Program-made: the position numbers and the translations under genes
The notes under the pieces: model-generated
Told to the model about the DNA's origin: nothing
What the model saw: only the letters and a program-made list of their open reading frames with translations
Databases searched by the model: none
Shown: one piece after another, positions 4,443 through 34,362 of the stretch
How the letters are laid out: every line of letters starts with the position of its first letter
Numbering within the stretch: position 1 is the stretch's first letter
Sequence record: MH243438.1
Direction: 5' to 3' (one strand)
Origin: Escherichia phage vB_EcoM_NBG1
Length of the DNA: 64,000 nt

Positions 4443-4484
4443 TTAATTTGATGTGGTCATTATAACCACATCGTGTTAAAGCGT

Positions 4485-6173
4485 TTATGAAACAGTCATT
4501 ACAGTAAATCGTCCAACTTTGCTCATCTGAAGATGTTGTCCATAACGTTGAGGGTCATGGTCTCTATGAGAGATAATGAACACATTAGTATTTTGTAAAC
4601 TACCAAGGATGGTATCTATAGCCTTAACAGCTTCAGAATCCACAGCGCCGTCAAAAACTTCATCTAAAATCAGAGTGTTGATTTTAACACCAGAAACCTT
4701 TTCAGCAATATCTCGCCATGTAAACAACAGTGCGATATCGATACGTGCTTTTTCACCTTGACTAAATGAAGCATAACTGAACTCTTCACGGCCACGTGAT
4801 TTTATAGACTCATTGAATTCTTCGTCAATAGAAAACACGTAATCGGCTTCCATGATTTTAAGATAATGGTTAATCTGCTTATTGAACAAAGGCACGTATT
4901 TTTTAATGATAGCACCTTTAATACCAGAATCTTTTAACATATCTGTGATAATACCACGATGGTATTTTTCAAGAACGATGTCTGATTTTGTTTTAATGAT
5001 TTTATCAAGTTCTTTTTGAAGCAAAGCTATCTCATCAGCATGGTCGATAAATTCTGCTGAGGCTTGCTCTATTGCAGCTTTAACTTTCTTAGCTTTATCA
5101 ATAGTGGCAATCATTGCTTGTTTCTTGGTACGAATATCAGATGCAAGGTCCTGTTTAGTCTTAACATTAGCTCTATATTCGTCCACTAGGACACTCAGAT
5201 TATCTCTGTGACAGGTAAGTTGCTCGAATGAGTGATTACATTCATGAAGCTTATCGGTAATCTTAGAGACAATAGGATCACCCTGGTGCAACTGTGATGC
5301 ACAAGTAGGACATGTACCGCCATCATGATACATCTTAATAACTTTGTTATATGAGTCAATTTTAGATTTAATCAAGAATGCTTCTTGTCCTATCTTGTCG
5401 AATGCCTCAGTAGGGTCTTCATCAAGAACGATATTAAGTAGTCGCTCATTAGCTTCTTCGATTTCTGCTTTTAATGAACGAGCTTCTTTGGCTAGGTCGT
5501 CATACATATTCTGTAGACGCGCTACATTATCACCGGATAATTTCTTTTGACGTTCGATATTCTCATTATAAATCTTAATTTGTTGGATAACACCATCTTT
5601 CTTGGCGTCGAGAACTTGCCCCTGGGAATTAAGTTCTCGAACTTGAGACTTATTGATTTTATCCATTTCAGCGAGCGTGCCAACTTCTAAAAGGTCTTCG
5701 ACAAGTTTTCTACGAGCAGGGGTGCTAAGAGCCATGAAAGGGGTATACCCTGCCGTCCCAAGCACAACGATTTGTTTAAAAGACGCGTATGACATTCCGA
5801 TGCTACGTTCAAATTCTTCTTGGAAGTCACGACTGCTGGCAGATTCATCGAGACGAACACCGTCAACGGAGATTTCGAAAATATTGGGCTTTTGGCCACG
5901 TTTAATGAAGTATTTTTTATCATCGAATTCCATCCAAAGCTCAACTAAGAGCTCTTTCTTGTTCGTGCTATTAATGATTTGTCCTTTCTTAACATCACGA
6001 AATGGTTTACCGAAAAGTCCGAAAGTAATGGCTTCTAACATCGTAGATTTACCACCGCCATTTTTACCAGTGATTAATGTCTTTTGGACTTTATCTAATT
6101 GGATATCAATAGGATTCCCACCTACCGACATGATGTTTTGATAACGAACACGATTTAATTTAAATGATTTCAT
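4485..6173 (-). CDS. 46: Recombination nuclease ATPase subunit gp46 (SbcC/Rad50-like)
   Basis: 562 aa, Walker A GKNGGGKST, long coiled-coil middle, C-terminal signature/Walker B LILDEVFDG. Confidence 0.9.
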   Translation of the reverse strand: MKSFKLNRVRYQNIMSVGGNPIDIQLDKVQKTLITGKNGGGKSTMLEAITFGLFGKPFRDVKKGQIINSTNKKELLVELWMEFDDKKYFIKRGQKPNIFEISVDGVRLDESASSRDFQEEFERSIGMSYASFKQIVVLGTAGYTPFMALSTPARRKLVEDLLEVGTLAEMDKINKSQVRELNSQGQVLDAKKDGVIQQIKIYNENIERQKKLSGDNVARLQNMYDDLAKEARSLKAEIEEANERLLNIVLDEDPTEAFDKIGQEAFLIKSKIDSYNKVIKMYHDGGTCPTCASQLHQGDPIVSKITDKLHECNHSFEQLTCHRDNLSVLVDEYRANVKTKQDLASDIRTKKQAMIATIDKAKKVKAAIEQASAEFIDHADEIALLQKELDKIIKTKSDIVLEKYHRGIITDMLKDSGIKGAIIKKYVPLFNKQINHYLKIMEADYVFSIDEEFNESIKSRGREEFSYASFSQGEKARIDIALLFTWRDIAEKVSGVKINTLILDEVFDGAVDSEAVKAIDTILGSLQNTNVFIISHRDHDPQRYGQHLQMSKVGRFTVMTVS

Positions 6174-6653: not shown

Positions 6654-7669
6654 TGTGTTGCCTCAATATAAAGTTCGTTGGAATATTTGACCAGCGCTTC
6701 TCTGTCTTCGTCTGAGATATCTGGAATCGCGTCAATATATTCTTTAATGATATCTTGAAGTGATTTAATCTCGATTTCCTGGTCATCATCAGATTCAACA
6801 CTGTTATCAACTTTAGAAACCATACGAAGAGAGTGAACTACTTTTTCAAGTTCAGATTCAAACTTAGTCAACTCTGAATCAATTTCTGATACTATAACAC
6901 GTACGGCTAGATTAGTATAATCAGAATAATTAATTTTGCCTTTAAACGGATAAGTGATTCGTCGATGCCATGTTGTTTCATTAGGAATAAATTCCATACG
7001 TTCAACATCAGTGTCAAATACCCAGAATCCGCGCGGGTCGTTCTCGTCACCTGCAGTAAGGGTCCATGGTGTCCCAATATATTTGACGTTAGCAGCTTCA
7101 GAGATTGTGTGGAAGTGGCCAGACCAGACTTGTTTATAGGTCTTTAAGAAATCAGGTTCAAGCCCATGAGACTTCATTCCTTTATAGAAATAAAAGCCAT
7201 TCAGTTCCCAGTGCCCAACACAATACGCTGCGGAAGAAGTCTTGATGTGCTCTAAGATTTCACCTGTATTTTCTTCACACATCCATGGAACGATATCAAT
7301 CAGACATCCGTCAAAATCTACAGTAGTCGGATGCTCGTAAATAGTAAAGTTTTCAAATTGAGTTAACAATTCAGAAACAGTGTTAGGTGTTATTGTATTC
7401 TTAAACGCCATGTCATGGTTTCCTATCGTGACATGAACGTGAATGCCTGCTTTAGAAATCATATCAACGATTTCACGATTGAATTCCATTGTACGATGTG
7501 TTATTGCTTTACGGACGTCAAACCAATCGCCGTACTGAATCCAAGTTTTAATCCCGTGTTTCTTAGAGTATTCAATTGCTTGACGAATACCATCACGTTG
7601 AATATCTTGAACCCATGGGTCGTCTTGTTTGACTCCGATATGGAAGTCGCCTAAGTGCAAAATTTTCAT
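6650..7669 (-). CDS. 47: Recombination nuclease gp47 (SbcD/Mre11-like phosphoesterase)
   Basis: 339 aa, MKILHLGDFHIG and GNHD metallophosphatase motifs. Confidence 0.9.
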   Translation of the reverse strand: MKILHLGDFHIGVKQDDPWVQDIQRDGIRQAIEYSKKHGIKTWIQYGDWFDVRKAITHRTMEFNREIVDMISKAGIHVHVTIGNHDMAFKNTITPNTVSELLTQFENFTIYEHPTTVDFDGCLIDIVPWMCEENTGEILEHIKTSSAAYCVGHWELNGFYFYKGMKSHGLEPDFLKTYKQVWSGHFHTISEAANVKYIGTPWTLTAGDENDPRGFWVFDTDVERMEFIPNETTWHRRITYPFKGKINYSDYTNLAVRVIVSEIDSELTKFESELEKVVHSLRMVSKVDNSVESDDDQEIEIKSLQDIIKEYIDAIPDISDEDREALVKYSNELYIEATQ

Positions 7670-23482: not shown

Positions 23483-24472
23483 TTATTTATAGTAAGAATT
23501 ATGATTTTCGAGATAGACTTGCTCAAGGAAATCATCCCAGAAACTCATATCTACTTTTTGTTGCATACCGTTCTTAGCGGCTTGTTCTGATGCTTGTTCT
23601 ACCTGGTCAACAATGACTTCCAGGAATTCTTGTACAGTTTTAAACGTATGTTTACCAAGCTTAACATCGAGAATAAATGGAGCATCCTGAAGTGGGTAAA
23701 CCAAGTCACCGGTTTTGTAAATTTCCAATAATTGAAGTCCACCACGACATGCATGACTCAATGCTTTCCAGTCAATACCTTCGTTAGCTTCTGCCTTACG
23801 AGCACGTTCACCATAGTTCTCTTCCAGTTTAACCAGGATGGCATTGAACTCTTTATTGGTTAACGTATCTTGGAATTTACGGTCTAACAGATTATAGAAT
23901 GTTTGCTTACCTGTTTTCTCGTTTTCGGTTTCAATCCACGAAGCAAATTCACCTACAGGCAGAACATTCTTCATATGTGATAAACGAATTACTGCGCCAT
24001 TATCAAAGTATTGTCCCCATTCATTAGAACGTTTAAGGGCTTGACGAAGAACAGCCAGTCGAGAACCCTTGACACCGTATTTAGAAGCTTGCTTACGGAC
24101 ATACCCCAAATAAGATTTCATGTTAGTGGTATAGAAACGAGACCTGTTATCTTGAATATACTTCCACACGTCAGGCAAATCAGATTTAACCACTAGACTT
24201 GGTGGAGTGTGAAGCATATCTAATGCGACAGTTTCACCATCCGCAGCTAGTTTAAAGAAATATTTGAGACTATACAACTCATGGTCCACGTCGTCTTTTG
24301 TGTTCTTAGAAGATGTGTTATTCGTGTTCTTGCTCATGTGTTCTTTAACGTTACCGGTCAAGATATCACGAGCATGAGGGACATAAATTTCTTTAAAATC
24401 GACGTCAGATTCAGGAGTAGACGTTCCATAAAGGTGGCTACCAAAGTAGCCTTTCATAATTGTTTTCATCAT
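23483..24472 (-). CDS. Nucleotidyltransferase-fold protein (Pol-beta superfamily)
   Basis: N-terminal GSHLYGTSTPESDVDF (GS-x9-SDxD) plus downstream acidic residues; ~250-aa helical C-terminal part. Confidence 0.55.
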   Translation of the reverse strand: MMKTIMKGYFGSHLYGTSTPESDVDFKEIYVPHARDILTGNVKEHMSKNTNNTSSKNTKDDVDHELYSLKYFFKLAADGETVALDMLHTPPSLVVKSDLPDVWKYIQDNRSRFYTTNMKSYLGYVRKQASKYGVKGSRLAVLRQALKRSNEWGQYFDNGAVIRLSHMKNVLPVGEFASWIETENEKTGKQTFYNLLDRKFQDTLTNKEFNAILVKLEENYGERARKAEANEGIDWKALSHACRGGLQLLEIYKTGDLVYPLQDAPFILDVKLGKHTFKTVQEFLEVIVDQVEQASEQAAKNGMQQKVDMSFWDDFLEQVYLENHNSYYK

Positions 24473-25827: not shown

Positions 25828-26061
25828 CTACCGATTGTGTTTTAAATGTTGATAAAGTTCTTCAACTTGTTTAGGGTCCAAAACAATTAGGTCATTTTCT
25901 TGACGAAGATAAATCCATCCCTTATCCCCAGGTCCATTTTTACAAAACATCACCACCATATCATCATCTTCAGCGCTTTCAGGTAAAAGTTCAAGTACAC
26001 CGTCTTCAGATTTTCCAGTATAATCGTAAAGCATAATATCCTCACATAATCTCGTTAACAT
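25828..26061 (-). CDS. hypothetical protein
   Basis: 77-aa ORF. Confidence 0.45.
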   Translation of the reverse strand: MLTRLCEDIMLYDYTGKSEDGVLELLPESAEDDDMVVMFCKNGPGDKGWIYLRQENDLIVLDPKQVEELYQHLKHNR

Positions 26062-26221
26062 ACATTTGCAATTCGGAGTGGGCGATGGTCATCTTTTTCA
26101 TAGCTCTGTTAATGTCGATGTCTCCATCTTCGCAACCATGAGCATTTTCCCAATCAGATACCGCATTAGCGTACTCTTCAATCAAAAACATTAACTTTGA
26201 AATCTTTTCTTTACGCGTCAT
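26042..26221 (-). CDS. hypothetical protein (59 aa)
   Basis: Start reassigned to MTRKEK downstream of GAGGAG; longer track ORF would include its own promoter and terminator. Confidence 0.45.
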   Translation of the reverse strand: MTRKEKISKLMFLIEEYANAVSDWENAHGCEDGDIDINRAMKKMTIAHSELQMYVNEIM

Positions 26222-26277
26222 AATGTTCTCCTCTAGTAAGTAAGGACTACTATAACACAACCTGAGGAGAAGTAAAC
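26222..26277 (-). promoter_or_regulatory. Early promoter/Shine-Dalgarno cassette (near-copy of regB cassette)
   Basis: Minus strand GTTTAC-TTCTCCTC...TATAGT...CTAGAGGAGAACATT-ATG. Confidence 0.45.
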
Positions 26278-26285
26278 TGATAGAT

Positions 26286-26316
26286 GCCAAAAAGCCCCAA
26301 CCATAAGGAAGGGGCT
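26286..26316 (-). terminator. Rho-independent terminator downstream of rI
   Basis: Minus-strand hairpin GCCCC/GGGGC with inner CC/GG, then TTTTTGG; ~22-bp arm identical to element at 41863-41884. Confidence 0.55.
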
Positions 26317-26322
26317 AGTAAA

Positions 26323-26625
26323 TTAGATAGATGTAGGCTCTAATTTTATTTTCATGAACTCGGCAAATTGTCTGGCTGTTTTTATGCCTTGTTCATGACA
26401 TTCAAATGCATCATCACAGGGGCTATTTTTGTAATGCTTTGCCATATACTTATAGAATTTTTCAGAATTCTCGACATTTTGAATTTCAAACAAAGTATAT
26501 ACGTTTTTAATCCCTGATTCCATAAAGTTATCAAAATATGGGTCAACATATGCAGTGCCAACAATAGGAGTTGTTACTGCAAAAAACCCCAGCATCACCA
26601 TGACGGCTATCGCTCTTAAGGCCAT
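26323..26625 (-). CDS. rI: Lysis inhibition regulator RI (periplasmic antiholin)
   Basis: MALRAIAVMVMLGFFAV...YVDPYFDNFMESGIKNVY...SPCDDAFECHEQG matches T4 RI. Confidence 0.8.
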   Translation of the reverse strand: MALRAIAVMVMLGFFAVTTPIVGTAYVDPYFDNFMESGIKNVYTLFEIQNVENSEKFYKYMAKHYKNSPCDDAFECHEQGIKTARQFAEFMKIKLEPTSI

Positions 26626-26637
26626 ATAGGCCTCCTG

Positions 26638-26850
26638 TTAATTTTGGCCAGTATTTATTTTTCGCCTTTGGACGGCCTTAACATCTGCGAGGTATTTTTC
26701 CAGCTTGCGCTTGCGTGTATAATCAGCTTTAGAACCAGTTTGACGGATATCCTCGTTTAAATGAGAAATAGAATGTCCTAATTCTCTTCGGATTTCATCC
26801 AATTGGGTTACAGTAAGATTACGAAGTTGTCTTTCGTTTAATTGCTGCAT
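26638..26850 (-). CDS. hypothetical protein (rI-flanking)
   Basis: 70-aa basic ORF. Confidence 0.5.
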
Positions 26851-26874
26851 ATATACCTCTTGGTTAGATATTAG

Positions 26875-26882
26875 TATTTATA
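26875..26882 (-). promoter_or_regulatory. Late promoter TATAAATA
   Basis: Exact octamer on minus strand ~25 nt upstream of ORF 26638-26850, overlapping tk stop codon. Confidence 0.4.
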
Positions 26883-27459
26883 ACAATCCTGTTAAATCAT
26901 TCCAATGCTTCCGGCATAATGACACATATCTATCGGTATCACCAATTTCAATTTGACTGCCATCTGTAATTGGAAGACCGTCTTCCGTGACTCTAGCTAC
27001 CATTGTGGCCTTTTTACCACAATGACAGACACCTTTAAGTTCAACAAGCTTATCGGCAATAGCCATTAATGCTTGAGAACCTTCAAATAGATTACCTTTA
27101 AAATCTGTTCGTAGTCCATATGCCATTACCGGCACATTGTATACGTCAACAATACGACTAAGTTGATACACCTTTTCAGTAGTTAAGAACTGAGCTTCGT
27201 CAACAAATACGCAGTGAATATCCTTTTGTGCTGCAGCCCATTTATAGAATTCAAAGATATCCATGTCTTTTGTAATTATATTGGCGTCCTGACGAATACC
27301 AATACGAGAGACTATTTCACCTTTTGAATCGCGAGTATCAATAGCCGGTTTAAGAACTAATACACCCATGCCACGTTCTTTATAGTTATGTGCGGCAGTA
27401 AGTAATGAAGCAGACTTACCAGCGTTCATAGCGGCATAGGTAAAAATTAAACTAGCCAT
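26878..27459 (-). CDS. tk: Thymidine kinase
   Basis: MASLIFTYAAMNAGKSASLLTAAHNYKERG... 193 aa, close match to T4 Tk. Confidence 0.9.
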   Translation of the reverse strand: MASLIFTYAAMNAGKSASLLTAAHNYKERGMGVLVLKPAIDTRDSKGEIVSRIGIRQDANIITKDMDIFEFYKWAAAQKDIHCVFVDEAQFLTTEKVYQLSRIVDVYNVPVMAYGLRTDFKGNLFEGSQALMAIADKLVELKGVCHCGKKATMVARVTEDGLPITDGSQIEIGDTDRYVSLCRKHWNDLTGLL

Positions 27460-27468
27460 AAGAGTCCC

Positions 27469-27651
27469 TTATAGTGAATTCACGTAGTCAATGAGTTCTT
27501 GTTCTTTCCTGTCAAATGATTCCAACAATGCTTGATATTCTTCGTCCGTCAAAGGAGCATATTCATCATACGCATTGGTGGCTGCTTGCTCATCCAATAG
27601 GTCATGGATAAGTTCAAACAGTTTAGTTTTCTCTTCTTTAGTCAATTTCAT
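27469..27651 (-). CDS. hypothetical protein
   Basis: 60-aa acidic ORF. Confidence 0.45.
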   Translation of the reverse strand: MKLTKEEKTKLFELIHDLLDEQAATNAYDEYAPLTDEEYQALLESFDRKEQELIDYVNSL

Positions 27652-27875
27652 TTAGGTTCACCTTCTTTAACGAAATCTGGGTAAGGGTAAAATCCTGAGT
27701 AAAACCATTCACCTTTATGATTGCTACAACCTTTGTTCGAACAGTAACACCAATAATCAAAATCACAAGCCATTTCGTCATTGCATAAAGCAAAAACTAC
27801 AGGCCATTCGCATTTTTCGCATTTAGCACCTGTAAGAATTTTTGTTTGACTCATAGCCATGTCACCTTTAAGCAA
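27648..27875 (-). CDS. cysteine-rich small protein
   Basis: 75 aa with multiple Cys pairs. Confidence 0.5.
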   Translation of the reverse strand: MLKGDMAMSQTKILTGAKCEKCEWPVVFALCNDEMACDFDYWCYCSNKGCSNHKGEWFYSGFYPYPDFVKEGEPK

Positions 27876-28078
27876 TATTCTTCTACATGTTGTTTACGGC
27901 CTTTCTTATCAATAAAGGTATATTCAACGAATGTTCCGATGTAGTCTTTATCTACATCATGTGGACTATTAATTGGACATTTAGTACGACAAATGCGTTC
28001 CCATTGACGAATAATTACTGCCTTATTCTTTGGATCGTATGGATGTGGATAATGTATATTCATAATAACGGTTCCCAA
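27851..28078 (-). CDS. hypothetical protein
   Basis: 75-aa ORF. Confidence 0.45.
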   Translation of the reverse strand: MGTVIMNIHYPHPYDPKNKAVIIRQWERICRTKCPINSPHDVDKDYIGTFVEYTFIDKKGRKQHVEEYCLKVTWL

Positions 28079-28557
28079 TCAACAATCACAATTTCTAGTT
28101 TAGTAGAATACGTATCTAAAATCTCTTCGATGACATCCCAGTTTCCACCACCAATACCTGCACCAATTCTTGGCATATAAATTACAGGCTTTGTTATCTT
28201 ATTCTTTCCGAATTCATTTAATTCTATTATACAATTCATTAAAGCAGAGTACTCAAAATTAGGTCCCGGCTCAAACTGTGTATAAAGATTAAAGCAATAA
28301 GCTTTATAGGTCTTAAAATATTTTTCATAAACCGAATAAGTCCCGAGTTTAGACTTGTCTCCGAATTCGGTTTGAAGTTTATCGGCTTCTAAAATTTTTG
28401 GATAAGCCTTTGCTAATTGGCCTGCTACACCGGCGCCCATTGTATGAAAACAATTACACCCATGAGCAATATTATTACCTTTAGAAAACAGGGCGACAAT
28501 ATCGCCCTTGATATAGTTTTTAATCACTTGCTGCAAGTCCTCTATTATAAGAGTCAA
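28060..28557 (-). CDS. Macro-domain-like protein (possible ADP-ribose binding/processing)
   Basis: GNNIAHGCNCFHTMGAGVAGQL and MPRIGAGIGGG resemble the two macro-domain glycine-rich motifs. Confidence 0.5.
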   Translation of the reverse strand: MTLIIEDLQQVIKNYIKGDIVALFSKGNNIAHGCNCFHTMGAGVAGQLAKAYPKILEADKLQTEFGDKSKLGTYSVYEKYFKTYKAYCFNLYTQFEPGPNFEYSALMNCIIELNEFGKNKITKPVIYMPRIGAGIGGGNWDVIEEILDTYSTKLEIVIVDWEPLL

Positions 28558-28867
28558 CTAGACGGTCCACCATAGAATTGCATGCTGCCTTATCTTTAGG
28601 TTCCGCCACTGAGCATTCTAATATTTGCCATTTTTTATAGTATCTTTTAATTAAGGTAGACGCCTTGAACCTACTAGACGCCCCATCTTTTTCTCCGTCT
28701 TTATACGCGTATAACAATTTTTGTGAAAAATCTACTTTACACTCTTGACTTTTACCACAATAATCAGACGCCGTTCTGTTTGTATACTCCGTTACATCAG
28801 TATATGTAGTATTAGCAAGAGCGTTAAATGAAACCAAGCTAACTATTAAAGCCAACATTTTGGTCAT
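28520..28867 (-). CDS. secreted protein
   Basis: 115 aa with N-terminal signal-like MTKMLALIVSLVSFNALA and four Cys. Confidence 0.5.
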   Translation of the reverse strand: MTKMLALIVSLVSFNALANTTYTDVTEYTNRTASDYCGKSQECKVDFSQKLLYAYKDGEKDGASSRFKASTLIKRYYKKWQILECSVAEPKDKAACNSMVDRLVDSYNRGLAASD

Positions 28868-29406
28868 TCTTTTATTTCCAGTAGTTTATTTGATTTAAGG
28901 TAATTAGCCTTTTCTAGGACTTCAGAAGCATATTTACTTCCAGCACTTGTCTTCCATCCCGCATTATATGAGGATATAGCTTTTCTTATATCCCCGTTAT
29001 GTATATTTAACCAATAAGAAAATTCGATATAAGCCCATCTGGCTGAATTAGACCGCTTAGATAGCATTTTCTTAATTTGGGCATCAGTCATATTATAACC
29101 AAGCTGGTTAATTCTTGCCCTCATTGTTGGTAGATAATTTTGGAACATTCCATACGCATGGTGACCTTTCTTATCTTTAAGATTAATACCGGCAGATGAT
29201 TCCTGCCATAGTATTGCGGCCATTATGTATCCAAGTCCTTTCTTATGCATATTTTCATGCGTTTTAAATTTTCCGTCCTTAGAAAACTGTTCCCCAAACT
29301 GATAAGCATAATTCAAGTTATCGAGTTGGACATTACTAAAAGTATGCTCGGAGCTATGTGCTGATAACGAAAGAGCAAATAGACCAGCGAGTAGTGCTTT
29401 TCTCAT
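28864..29406 (-). CDS. Periplasmic lytic transglycosylase-like protein (SLT domain)
   Basis: Signal peptide MRKALLAGLFALSLSA; motifs LWQESSAG, GMFQ, SSYNAGW. Confidence 0.6.
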   Translation of the reverse strand: MRKALLAGLFALSLSAHSSEHTFSNVQLDNLNYAYQFGEQFSKDGKFKTHENMHKKGLGYIMAAILWQESSAGINLKDKKGHHAYGMFQNYLPTMRARINQLGYNMTDAQIKKMLSKRSNSARWAYIEFSYWLNIHNGDIRKAISSYNAGWKTSAGSKYASEVLEKANYLKSNKLLEIKE

Positions 29407-29414
29407 GTTTACCT

Positions 29415-29873
29415 CTAGATTTTAATCACTGCTTTAGAAGCTTTTCCTGGTAGTCGTTTACTGTTAATAATAGCCATTCTGCATTGAAGAGTCTTCATTT
29501 TGAATGCCGGATTTTCGCGACAAACTGTAAGTCCTAACCAAAGATTTCCGTCAGTTATTTCTAAACGGCCTGGACGATACTCGACACCTTCGACAAAATC
29601 TTCATCAACATCTGGACGTGCCGGCATTGATAAAAATTCTGCAACTTCTTTAACGTGATTTTTTACTTTATGAAATAATTCAAAAACGTAATTCTCATCT
29701 ATTTCTCTCTGGATGGCACGATCTAAGAGATGTTGAGAATACTTGATATGAAAGCCTGGTAGTCCAAGAGACTTTGCAGCATCTTTTATACCGGCATTTA
29801 TTTTGCGGAACTCCGTTTCAAAGATTCGACGGAGTTTATTACGGCGGATAAAAACTTCCGAATTGATAGTCAT
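29415..29873 (-). CDS. regB: RegB endoribonuclease
   Basis: MTINSEVFIRRNKLRR...LKYSQHLLDRAIQREIDE...RPGRLEITDGNLWLG...QCRMAIINS.RLPGKASKAVIK matches T4 RegB. Confidence 0.85.
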   Translation of the reverse strand: MTINSEVFIRRNKLRRIFETEFRKINAGIKDAAKSLGLPGFHIKYSQHLLDRAIQREIDENYVFELFHKVKNHVKEVAEFLSMPARPDVDEDFVEGVEYRPGRLEITDGNLWLGLTVCRENPAFKMKTLQCRMAIINSKRLPGKASKAVIKI

Positions 29874-29880
29874 TTTGATT

Positions 29881-29930
29881 TCTCCTCTAGTTGACAAGTC
29901 TATAGTAACACAACTAGAGGAGAAGTAAAC
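29881..29930 (-). promoter_or_regulatory. regB early promoter with anti-SD/SD stem
   Basis: Minus strand GTTTAC-TTCTCCTCTAG-TTGTGT-TACTAT-...-CTAGAGGAGA-AATCAAA-ATG; 10-bp perfect inverted repeat. Confidence 0.55.
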
Positions 29931-30229
29931 TACTCTTTGAAAGGAATTAACTTTTTAACTGCTTTAGATACTTCGTCACGAACCTGATGGAAGTTCTTGA
30001 GCTGTTCAAGGCGTTGTTCGTAATACGCAATCTCATCTTCTTCAAGACAATCGTCAGCGTCTTCTTTCAGATATGCCTTGTACTCATTAAAGAGGGCCCA
30101 TAGGCGGTTCTCAAAGTCATCAAGGCTTTGAATTTTCTTGTGCTTCGGAACAAGGCCAAAAGGATTGCTTTCAGTTATGCGTCTAGATGCTTCATAATGA
30201 GTTCCAAAGCCTGATAGGATTTGAGCCAT
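29930..30229 (-). CDS. hypothetical protein
   Basis: 99-aa ORF. Confidence 0.5.
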
Positions 30230-30510
30230 TAGTATTTTTCCTCAGGTCGAAATACTGCACGACATGCCCACATGCTGGCTTCTTTTAGATGTTGCTTAGC
30301 ATACTTAAGAGCCTGTACTGCATCCATATCTTCTTTGGTTTGTTGCTCTGTTTCATTTTCTTTCAAGATATATGCTTCTTCAATCAGAGCATCAAACAAC
30401 AATCCAAGACGGACTTCTGCATCTTTAATAGCGTTCACTTTACCGATTTTATCATCGGTATGCGGCTTGTAGCCTTTGATGTCTTCAATCGACATAAGGA
30501 ATTTCCTCAT
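30229..30510 (-). CDS. hypothetical protein (T4 vs.4 position)
   Basis: 93 aa from internal Met [13 protein letters not shown]; assignment positional only. Confidence 0.4.
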
Positions 30511-30709
30511 CGGTGGCAAGGTCATATTCGACCAATTGGATAGGCTCATTAATACCATATCCACGTACAGTGATATCAGTTGCCGGATAGTTTCCAGTAA
30601 TATCACCCATTCTAAATGCTTCAATGAATGATTGCTCGCCTGAGCAACTAAACCAGGCGGCAAAACATTTTAAAACATCTTCAGACCCTTCTATAATCAA
30701 TTTAGCCAT
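30485..30709 (-). CDS. hypothetical protein
   Basis: 74-aa ORF. Confidence 0.45.
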   Translation of the reverse strand: MAKLIIEGSEDVLKCFAAWFSCSGEQSFIEAFRMGDITGNYPATDITVRGYGINEPIQLVEYDLATDEEIPYVD

Positions 30710-31071
30710 TATAGACTCTCAGTAAAGGTACGAGCGATAACGTCGCGCTGCTGTTCCGGAGTCAGAGAGTTAAAGCGAACTGCATAACCGGATACACGGA
30801 TGGTCAACTGCGGATATTTTTCTGGATGCTTAACTGCATCTTCCAGAGTTTCACGACGCAGAACATTAACGTTCAGGTGTTGACCACCTTCAATTTTAAC
30901 TTTAGGTTGATGTTCAATTTCAATTTCACGGGCATTCAAACCGTAGAAAATTTCCGGGTCTACAATAGCGTCTTCTTTAAAAGTCTTAGAGACAATAATC
31001 CGGGCTTGAGTACCGTCTTCAAAATAAATAGTGCCTTTGTGTGTGCCTTCAAGAATTTGATATGCTTTCAT
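30709..31071 (-). CDS. Autonomous glycyl-radical cofactor (GrcA/YfiD-like; T4 Y06I equivalent)
   Basis: C-terminal [29 protein letters not shown] is the glycyl-radical motif. Confidence 0.8.
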
Positions 31072-31077
31072 ATAACC

Positions 31078-31386
31078 TCAATTAGAAAATAAATTTATCC
31101 AAGTTTTTTCTTTAATCAAAAATGGGTCGGAATTAAACGCCATTAAACTTTGAGTGATTAATCCCTTAAATGGCCCATCAATAAATTCCATTTTGAAATG
31201 TGGAATACTAGTCATCAACCGTGCATTAGGAGCAGTACAAAGAACCTGCTGCCCTGCGAACGGACCTTTAGTCAAACGGTATCGTTTAGGTTTAAAATGG
31301 TAAATCTCGTAATTTTCTACAAGGGCCCTTTTATTGCATACTGGGCTGGTATAACAATATTCAAAAACTTCAATAGTGGTCATCAT
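31078..31386 (-). CDS. hypothetical protein
   Basis: 102-aa ORF. Confidence 0.5.
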   Translation of the reverse strand: MMTTIEVFEYCYTSPVCNKRALVENYEIYHFKPKRYRLTKGPFAGQQVLCTAPNARLMTSIPHFKMEFIDGPFKGLITQSLMAFNSDPFLIKEKTWINLFSN

Positions 31387-33567: not shown

Positions 33568-33849
33568 CTATTTTTCTGAAGCGCCTGAAATATATTTTTC
33601 AAGACGTTGTTTCATTAGCGAGCCGTTCTTAGCGATTTCTTCTGGTTTATCGCACATACGCAACAAGGCTTCAAGCTTAGCGATATCGCTGGTACGTTCA
33701 AATTTGCGAGTATCTATCTTACTAGCAAGTTCAGAAATACGTGCTAATAGACTTTCGGCTTCAACCAAAGCTGCACCTAACTTAGTTGCAAATGTGTCAG
33801 TAGCTTCATTAAGAATAGATTCTGATAAAAATTCACTATATGTTTTCAT
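33568..33849 (-). CDS. Internal-protein-like protein
   Basis: Starts [10 protein letters not shown] at internal Met of track ORF. Confidence 0.55.
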
Positions 33850-34334
33850 ATATACGCTTTCCAAGTTCCTGTTTTAAATGTTGAGATTACGCGTTTCGCG
33901 CGATTAGGTGTCTGACGATACCATTTAGATTGGGCTAGATTTACTGCCGCTTCATCCCAACGTTTCTGTTGAAGCATACGAAGAGAATTAGTAAAACCGG
34001 CGACGCCTGCTACGCCCATTTGGAAGACCATATTGACCAATGCACATCGACGAACCGCATCTAAAGAATCATATACCGGTTTAAGTTTAGCATTACCCAA
34101 GATTCCGCGAACGGCTTTATCAACGTCTTCATTAAATAGCTTTTCAGCCTCATCAAGGGTAATTGTACCGTTGCATTTACGACCGATCATTCTGTCAAGT
34201 TCAGCTTTAGCTACGGCTAAAGACGGGTTCTTTGTTACTAAATGGCCTATGCCAATCGTCCAAAAGCCTTCAGTGTCTTTGTATAAAGTCAGTCTAAGAC
34301 CTTCGTCATTACGAAGCATTTCAAATATATTCAT
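33846..34334 (-). CDS. e: Lysozyme (endolysin) e
   Basis: [32 protein letters not shown]... near-identical to T4 lysozyme. Confidence 0.9.
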
Positions 34335-34362
34335 AATACCTCCCACGTTTATAGGAGGTATT
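34335..34362 (-). promoter_or_regulatory. Hairpin sequestering the lysozyme Shine-Dalgarno
   Basis: 9-bp stem AATACCTCC/GGAGGTATT; 3' arm abuts ATG; loop TATAAACGTG resembles late-promoter core. Confidence 0.55.

Follow-up and report, generated by a model that had tools for sequence, protein, structure and literature searches.

The genes described here lie in a 64,000-nucleotide (nt) stretch of DNA from Escherichia phage vB_EcoM_NBG1 (record MH243438.1), referred to below as the window, where they occupy positions 28060 to 29406 of the minus strand. A preliminary description, made from the sequence alone, had reported three minus-strand open reading frames (ORFs) at this locus, namely a macrodomain-like protein followed by two proteins with signal peptides, and all three are present. 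What that description missed is that these are long-known genes, tk.4, vs and vs.1 of phage T4, the middle one carrying the classical label "valyl-tRNA synthetase modifier." According to the best explanation of the locus, to which a probability of about 0.8 is given as a whole, T4 tk.4 (adfM), vs, and vs.1 have their Mosigvirus orthologs in these three genes; the first would encode an ADP-ribosyl hydrolase of the ALC1-like/TARG1 class, acting in the cytoplasm, and the last an exported soluble lytic transglycosylase. The features on which this explanation draws are as follows:

28060..28527, minus strand: ortholog of T4 tk.4 / adfM, a stand-alone macrodomain of 155 amino acids (aa) with a GTG start, 84% identical over 155/155 aa
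28276..28278, minus strand: codon of Gln84, which stands where TARG1 has its catalytic Lys84 (Lys80 of DarG, Gln85 of SCO6735), placed by hhalign
28520..28527, minus strand: overlap of the macrodomain gene start (GTG) with the vs stop (TAA), GTGATTAA, read directly
28520..28867, minus strand: ortholog of T4 vs (annotated valyl-tRNA synthetase modifier), a 115-aa precursor, 67% identical to T4 Vs over 114 aa
28814..28867, minus strand: predicted Sec signal peptide of Vs (MTKMLALIVSLVSFNALA, then NTT after the predicted cleavage site), by heuristic reading
28864..28867, minus strand: overlap of the vs.1 stop with the vs start, ATGA, read directly
28864..29406, minus strand: ortholog of T4 vs.1, 180 aa, with a GH23 / SLT-type lytic transglycosylase fold, predicted to be exported
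29200..29202, minus strand: codon of Glu69, candidate catalytic glutamate of the ES motif in Vs.1, from its invariance in 32 homologs
29353..29406, minus strand: predicted Sec signal peptide of Vs.1 (MRKALLAGLFALSLSAHS, then SEH after the predicted cleavage site), by heuristic reading

The 2.6 kb around the three genes are 99.6% identical to Shigella phage JK36 (Mosigvirus mar005p1, Straboviridae), and the same 2.6 kb match 673 T4-like phage records. All genes of this stretch (regB, vs.1, vs, the macrodomain gene, three small ORFs, and tk) are carried on the minus strand, in synteny with the T4 order regB, vs.1, vs, tk.4, tk.3, tk.2, tk.1, tk. Identity to the T4 proteins is 84% for the macrodomain (Tk.4), 67% for Vs, and 83% for Vs.1. 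None of the three is a chance ORF, as tblastn finds homologs in 2800 (macrodomain), 795 (vs), and 2060 (vs.1) phage records. The macrodomain gene is identified as the ortholog of T4 Tk.4/AdfM by the gene order tk...tk.4-vs-vs.1-regB, which is common to T4 and the window; the two proteins are alike over their full length and in their place between tk.3 and vs, and differ by 25 substitutions, including a glycine at position 127 where T4 has a lysine (loop GIG(G/K)G). In T4, tk.4, vs, and vs.1 are each non-essential under standard conditions. The region is an ordinary, well-conserved part of the T4-like early region.

The first gene had been placed by the preliminary description at 28060-28557. 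The gene itself is real, but that start lies 30 nt too early. The TTG at 28557, which opens the longest possible ORF (165 aa), was rejected in favor of the GTG at 28527, because both T4 Tk.4 and the near-identical JK36 record give a product of 155 aa; codons 1-10 of the 165-aa ORF fall within the vs coding region. The annotation of JK36 has the identical 8-nt overlap between the macrodomain gene and vs. Since the starts overlap the preceding stops, the packing of the three genes is tight, and translational coupling is probable. A scan for promoters and terminators over 26800-31200 returned 11 promoter-like sites against 14.5 expected from shuffling, and hence no excess, and no RNA family was recognized by Rfam in 26000-31000. 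A GC-rich stem-loop of 8 bp followed by a T-run (AGGGCGATATTGTCGCCCT GTTTTCT) is present at 28490-28508 (minus strand), within codons 1-13 of the macrodomain gene and immediately past the vs stop; it could be due to chance, or it could be a structure acting on coupling or on transcript stability.

Assignment of the first protein to the macrodomains, as proposed from its glycine-rich motifs HGCNCFHTMGAGVAGQL and MPRIGAGIGGG (both of which are present), is borne out by profile searches and by matches to proteins of solved structure. The Pfam Macro family (PF01661) is matched at 28.5 bits against a gathering cut-off of 22, over profile positions 2-117 of 118. Macrodomains of solved structure in the PDB are also matched, some of them over the full length; they include BT1257 from Bacteroides (E-value 1.4e-10, the strongest), yeast Poa1p (2e-8), and SCO6735 (6.5e-5), together with TARG1 and DarG. 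Because these are its closest solved relatives, the protein is placed in the ALC1-like/TARG1 class. DarG is its sole match in PADLOC (2.2e-8) and its sole match in NCBIfam (E-value 2.1e-7), where the score of 30.6 bits stands far below the cut-off of 250. The latter model (NF048014), which defines DarG equivalogs, has 338 positions and is matched only at positions 4-146; the low score follows from this, as the macrodomain part alone of the model is matched. The phage protein shares its macrodomain class with the DarG macrodomain and human TARG1, but it does not have the C-terminal DarT-binding domain of DarG (155 aa against the 338-position model). Unlike Vs and Vs.1, it has no N-terminal segment with the n/h/c layout of a Sec signal on heuristic reading.

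The active site sets the phage protein apart from DarG and TARG1. The sequence of human TARG1 was confirmed against PDB entry 2LGR and compared by hhalign with a profile of 27 diverse homologs of the phage protein (probability 98.1%). In this alignment Gln84 of the phage protein stands opposite the catalytic Lys84 of TARG1 and Gly126 opposite Asp125, so the Lys84/Asp125 dyad is absent from the phage family. By transitivity through TARG1, glutamine also occupies the position of the catalytic Lys80 of DarG. Across the 27 homologs, His22, Asn25, Gln84, Gly122, and Gly124 are invariant. The expectation in the preliminary description that catalytic residues would be found is thus answered in two ways: the lysine of TARG1 and DarG is missing, and an invariant His22/Asn25/Gln84 set, probably of the SCO6735 type, is present. 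SCO6735 of Streptomyces coelicolor (PDB 5E3B) carries Gln85 where TARG1 has Lys84 and DarG has Lys80, and is without the Lys/Asp dyad (PMC9411070). Its Q85A and Q85E mutants are without any activity and its N27S mutant has almost none; the wild-type protein is efficient at releasing ADP-ribose linked to thymidine in DNA, and it gives protection from DarT (PMC9411070). The spacing of the five invariant phage residues agrees with that of His24/Asn27/Gln85 and Gly126/Gly128 in SCO6735, although only the C-terminal loop is aligned directly. The two proteins have in common their fold class and a glycine-rich phosphate loop, and they would also share the glutamine in place of lysine and an H-x-x-N element. 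On the other hand, they are distant (E-value 6.5e-5), and SCO6735 is a bacterial housekeeping/DNA-damage gene whose product has a longer mobile loop. Because the Lys/Asp dyad is absent and the His22/Asn25/Gln84 set is present, we infer that the phage AdfM family fits SCO6735 mechanistically rather than DarG. If the mechanism described for SCO6735 applies, Asn25 would fix Gln84, Gln84 would position the distal ribose, and a water held by the backbone would start cleavage of the ADP-ribose link.

The likely role of this enzyme is indicated by studies of T4. In a transposon screen of T4 (HIDEN-SEQ), tk.4 was the single significant gene needed on a DarTG2 host, and a clean tk.4 knockout makes T4 sensitive to DarTG2; the gene was named adfM (anti-DarT factor Macrodomain), and removal of ADP-ribose from DNA was proposed as its function (bioRxiv 10.1101/2025.11.20.689424). 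A macrodomain of phage PhiKZ, also called AdfM, strips ADP-ribose from DarT2-modified TNTC DNA in vitro (PMC13309987, 2026). The idea, already raised in the preliminary description, of a counter-defense role against ADP-ribosylating defenses gains support from the 2025 preprint, as the T4 ortholog that is needed against DarTG2 is 84% identical. The DarTG2 phenotype was measured for the T4 copy only, and the Mosigvirus-encoded protein is assigned its substrate by analogy. The host toxin DarT2 would place ADP-ribose on thymidines of single-stranded phage DNA, and the macrodomain would most likely remove it, letting replication continue in hosts that carry DarTG2.

It has to be considered whether the macrodomain acts on a small molecule instead of on DNA, as an ADP-ribose-1''-phosphate phosphatase of the Poa1p kind or an O-acetyl-ADP-ribose deacetylase. 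Such names are common in the annotations: phrog_335 carries the label "phosphatase," many homologs are called "O-acetyl-ADP-ribose deacetylase" at their source, and T4 tk.4 has been annotated with an "A1pp phosphatase motif" (PMC1524935). These names are homology transfers and not tested functions. One of the best PDB matches is yeast Poa1p (2e-8), but that match spans residues 14-89 only, the C-terminal part being weak (E-value 0.06). As DarTG2 sensitivity is the only phenotype reported for the T4 ortholog, and as SCO6735, with the same glutamine signature, hydrolyzes ADP-ribosylated DNA efficiently, a small-molecule enzyme is very unlikely. T4-like phages encode ADP-ribosyltransferases, and a further alternative is that the macrodomain reverses ADP-ribosylation of protein or RNA (by phage Alt, ModA, or ModB, or by other host defenses), or that it blocks DarT by non-catalytic binding. 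The ALC1-like macrodomains TARG1 and SCO6735 do accept protein substrates too, and catalytically dead SCO6735 still inhibits DarT through interaction (PMC9411070). The data on Tk.4 point to DarTG2 and not to protein or RNA substrates, however: in HIDEN-SEQ it was the single significant hit specifically with DarTG2, which makes this alternative improbable. Removal of ADP-ribose from DNA accordingly stays the preferred function for the macrodomain.

The third ORF, vs.1, encodes a predicted exported protein in which the motifs QESSAG, GMFQ, and YNAGW are present as had been proposed. The signal segment has two positive charges, a hydrophobic core (mean Kyte-Doolittle value 2.42), AHS at positions -3 to -1, and no lipobox; a signal-peptide layout is found in 32/32 aligned Vs.1 homologs, with variable sequence. 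The AlphaFold model is confident (predicted local distance difference test score (pLDDT) 89.8) and shows a lysozyme-like GH23 fold, in line with what the preliminary description had foreseen from structure prediction. The SLT signature, which is ES-GLMQ-AYNAG with a catalytic E (PMC8517470), reads Glu69-Ser70, Gly86-Met-Phe-Gln89, and Ser146-Tyr-Asn-Ala-Gly150 in Vs.1. Among the 32 homologs Glu69, Ser71, Gly86, Gln89, Tyr147, Asn148, Gly150, and Tyr159 are invariant, which includes the SLT motif residues, and in the model Glu69 lies at the C-terminal end of helix 59-70. The Pfam SLT family is matched by 29 of the 32 diverse family members at E-values of 0.01 or below (best 1.3e-7), and a marginal SLT match of vs.1 was noted as early as 2006 (PMC1524935).

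From these features it is concluded that Vs.1 is an exported soluble lytic transglycosylase, with both export and activity being predictions. A cleavable Sec signal peptide would direct its export and leave it free in the periplasm, where it would cleave host murein as a soluble family-1 (GH23) lytic transglycosylase with Glu69 as its single catalytic acid. In GH23 fold and in the ES, GMFQ, and SYNAG motifs Vs.1 resembles the family-1 transglycosylases Slt70, MltE, MltF, and EtgA; it differs from them in being a minimal, single-domain protein of 162 mature residues without a lipobox or accessory domains, and its identity to solved transglycosylases is only 14-18%. A lysozyme-like fold could also belong to a hydrolytic goose-type lysozyme or to a non-catalytic murein-binding protein. 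The first would call for a second acid, and there is no invariant aspartate in the 32 homologs able to serve as one, while the residues that characterize SLT enzymes (ES, G-x-x-Q, and YNAG) do not vary in any of them; a Vs.1 without transglycosylase activity is accordingly quite improbable. The gene is phage-encoded in the early gene block and is not the endolysin, which is gene e (33846-34346). The preliminary description had drawn a host-modifying role from the position of the transglycosylase outside the lysis cassette; the argument carries little weight, because a lysis cassette is absent from T4-like phages. One of the condition tables of the T4 screen shows a mild depletion of vs.1 insertions (log2 fold change -1.01, raw p 0.04, adjusted p 1.0; bioRxiv 10.1101/2025.11.20.689424). 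In phage RB16, vs.1 appears to be split into an ORF with the signal peptide and N-terminal motifs (1218-1556) and a C-terminal fragment annotated as vs.1 (1633-1866); the pieces adjoin an HNH endonuclease gene (region L006, 682-1866), and the split may be a disruption by a mobile element.

The middle gene, vs, is matched by phrog_1256 at 3e-35. The Vs protein has the same length and position as T4 Vs and shows no difference of substance from it. Its predicted signal segment has a positive n-region, an 11-residue hydrophobic core (mean Kyte-Doolittle value 2.73), and ALA at positions -3 to -1, as had been noted in outline when both downstream proteins were proposed to be exported; cleavage after Ala18 would convert the 12.9-kDa precursor to a mature protein of 97 residues and 11.0 kDa. 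A canonical signal-peptide layout is found in every Vs homolog examined, from Tequatrovirus to Pseudotevenvirus RB16 and the Acinetobacter Lazarusvirus. The signal region is poorly conserved and the mature part well conserved, including four cysteines (Cys37, Cys43, Cys85, and Cys96). An AlphaFold2 model is a confident four-helix bundle over residues 15-114 (pLDDT 85.8) with a disordered N-terminus (pLDDT <50, residues 1-13). Because a Foldseek search of the PDB with this model gave nothing below E=1, the fold is assignable no further than "four-helix bundle." The family is tiny: an indexed search returned 8 clusters, and when 1.8 billion proteins were searched exhaustively with a profile, 7 representatives came up, all of them short phage-like proteins, with no bacterial family among them that might suggest a function.

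By classical genetics and biochemistry, which are cited in PMC8076793 and have passed into the annotations, vs is tied to modification of valyl-tRNA synthetase (ValRS). On minimal glucose medium, the T4 transposon screen had vs as its top hit and T4 delta-vs showed poor plating, the role of ValRS modification being described there as unknown (bioRxiv 10.1101/2025.11.20.689424). No paper that connects the Vs modifier to a signal peptide was found in a literature search. Mature Vs would be an 11-kDa four-helix bundle with four conserved cysteines, which the classical annotation makes the tau factor binding host ValRS. The predicted export signal in all homologs argues against a cytoplasmic location, and the tension between such a signal and a cytoplasmic target holds for T4 Vs as well.

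Of the linkages among the three genes, only that of vs.1 and vs is conserved over long distances. In the window, T4, Klebsiella phage 15882-6-4 (Jiaodavirus), and Acinetobacter phage vB_AbaM_3014 (Lazarusvirus), whose protein matches the Vs profile with 97.5% probability, vs comes immediately after vs.1 and shares an overlap with it; the overlap is 8 nt in T4 and 1 nt in vB_AbaM_3014 and 15882-6-4. In RB16 one gene stands between vs.1 and vs. The macrodomain gene occurs in many lineages, is separated from vs by other genes in the Klebsiella and Acinetobacter phages, and is missing from the RB16 block that has vs and vs.1. The three genes as one functional module were therefore rejected, given the different distributions (2800, 795, and 2060 records), the intervening genes, and the RB16 block. 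They are probably neighbors in an early-region minus-strand block and not one machine. In both the Klebsiella phage (region L007, 2309-2701, 130 aa) and the Acinetobacter phage (region L003, 3285-3710, 141 aa) an extra small protein, lacking in the window and in T4, directly follows vs; its signal peptide is followed by W-E at what would be the mature N-terminus. As rI comes two genes later in the Acinetobacter phage, vs.1 and vs stand there within a run of envelope-targeted genes.

The conserved linkage raises the question of what Vs does. Just as T4 Spackle restrains gp5 lysozyme, Vs might work alongside Vs.1 in the periplasm, regulating or inhibiting it for instance, and not be a cytoplasmic synthetase modifier; the ValRS association would then be secondary or due to an unexported fraction. 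Consistent with this are the canonical signal peptide, the four conserved cysteines, and the place of vs overlapping and following vs.1 in all four phages named above; moreover, the 11.0 kDa of mature Vs is closer to the mass of the tau factor, roughly 10 kDa, than is that of the 12.9-kDa precursor. Spackle is absent among the fold hits of the Vs model (Foldseek, PDB), however. Zinc binding in the cytoplasm is another possible use of the four cysteines, and Aeromonas, Kuttervirus, and Vibrio phages have Vs.1 homologs but no Vs, in keeping with 2060 vs.1 records against 795 for vs. With the classical evidence for ValRS modification (cited in PMC8076793) also standing against it, this role for Vs can be put forward only tentatively and is doubtful. 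Vs is probably coupled to vs.1 in translation and would likewise be made with a signal peptide; that its coupled place reflects a periplasmic partnership, such as a regulator or inhibitor preventing premature wall damage, with the ValRS association secondary, is unlikely.

Several points weigh against the explanation of the locus as a whole. For the macrodomain, the link to DarTG2 in T4 is a genetic finding taken from a preprint, and the proteins of this phage are known from sequence alone. Direct alignment to the SCO6735 chain (5E3B) covers the C-terminal glycine loop only, which leaves the equivalence of the glutamines transitive via TARG1, and given the replacement of lysine by glutamine the DarG mechanism is not simply transferable. 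The signal peptides of Vs and Vs.1 were judged by heuristics alone, and a secreted Vs is at odds with its annotated cytoplasmic target, ValRS. As for Vs.1, it misses the gathering cut-off of Pfam SLT (PF01464), with 18.8 against 21.3 bits. A sequence search of the PDB with Vs.1 found nothing, and a PDB search with its family profile gave non-significant matches only (metacaspase, E-value 0.18; EtgA, 1.3; goose-type lysozyme, 1.7). Because the PDB sequence searches gave nothing significant, the SLT assignment rests on the fold, the motifs, and the Pfam matches of relatives.

Other genes of the surrounding block were also recognized. An ortholog of rI (lysis-inhibition regulator) lies at 26323-26625 (minus strand), about 1.4 kb downstream of the macrodomain gene as in T4, and is a further envelope-targeted protein with a hydrophobic N-terminus. 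An ortholog of T4 vs.4 is found at 30229-30495 (minus strand), with 66% identity over 87 aa. Vs.4 has been linked in papers to the anti-CBASS (cyclic oligonucleotide-based antiphage signaling system) protein Acb2, and at least two counter-defense genes (adfM and acb2) would thus stand in one gene block. The JK36 record MK962754 (region L001) seems to mislabel several genes (4465-5007, 5531-5830, 6679-7523, and 1-69): its vs.1 ortholog and three more ORFs are labeled "endoribonuclease" or "RegB domain," and the ORF corresponding to window positions 23483-24472 is labeled "thioredoxin." From T4 synteny the latter is presumably a nucleotidyltransferase (nrdC.11). These labels look like errors of annotation transfer.

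The earlier interpretation of the locus is supported overall, with content that is already published or annotated, and the value of the analysis lies mainly in the annotation of T4-like genomes. A gene called "phosphatase" or "macro domain protein" in hundreds of such genomes would be the anti-DarTG2 factor AdfM, and a gene called "hypothetical," or wrongly "endoribonuclease," in several records would be an exported lytic transglycosylase. Two features keep some interest, namely an active site of the Gln type in the phage AdfM family and, in Vs, the export signal with the linkage to vs.1. The invariant glutamine of the phage macrodomains goes slightly beyond the literature consulted, as does the possibility that the conserved export signal of Vs, together with the linkage to vs.1, calls into question an action on a cytoplasmic synthetase.

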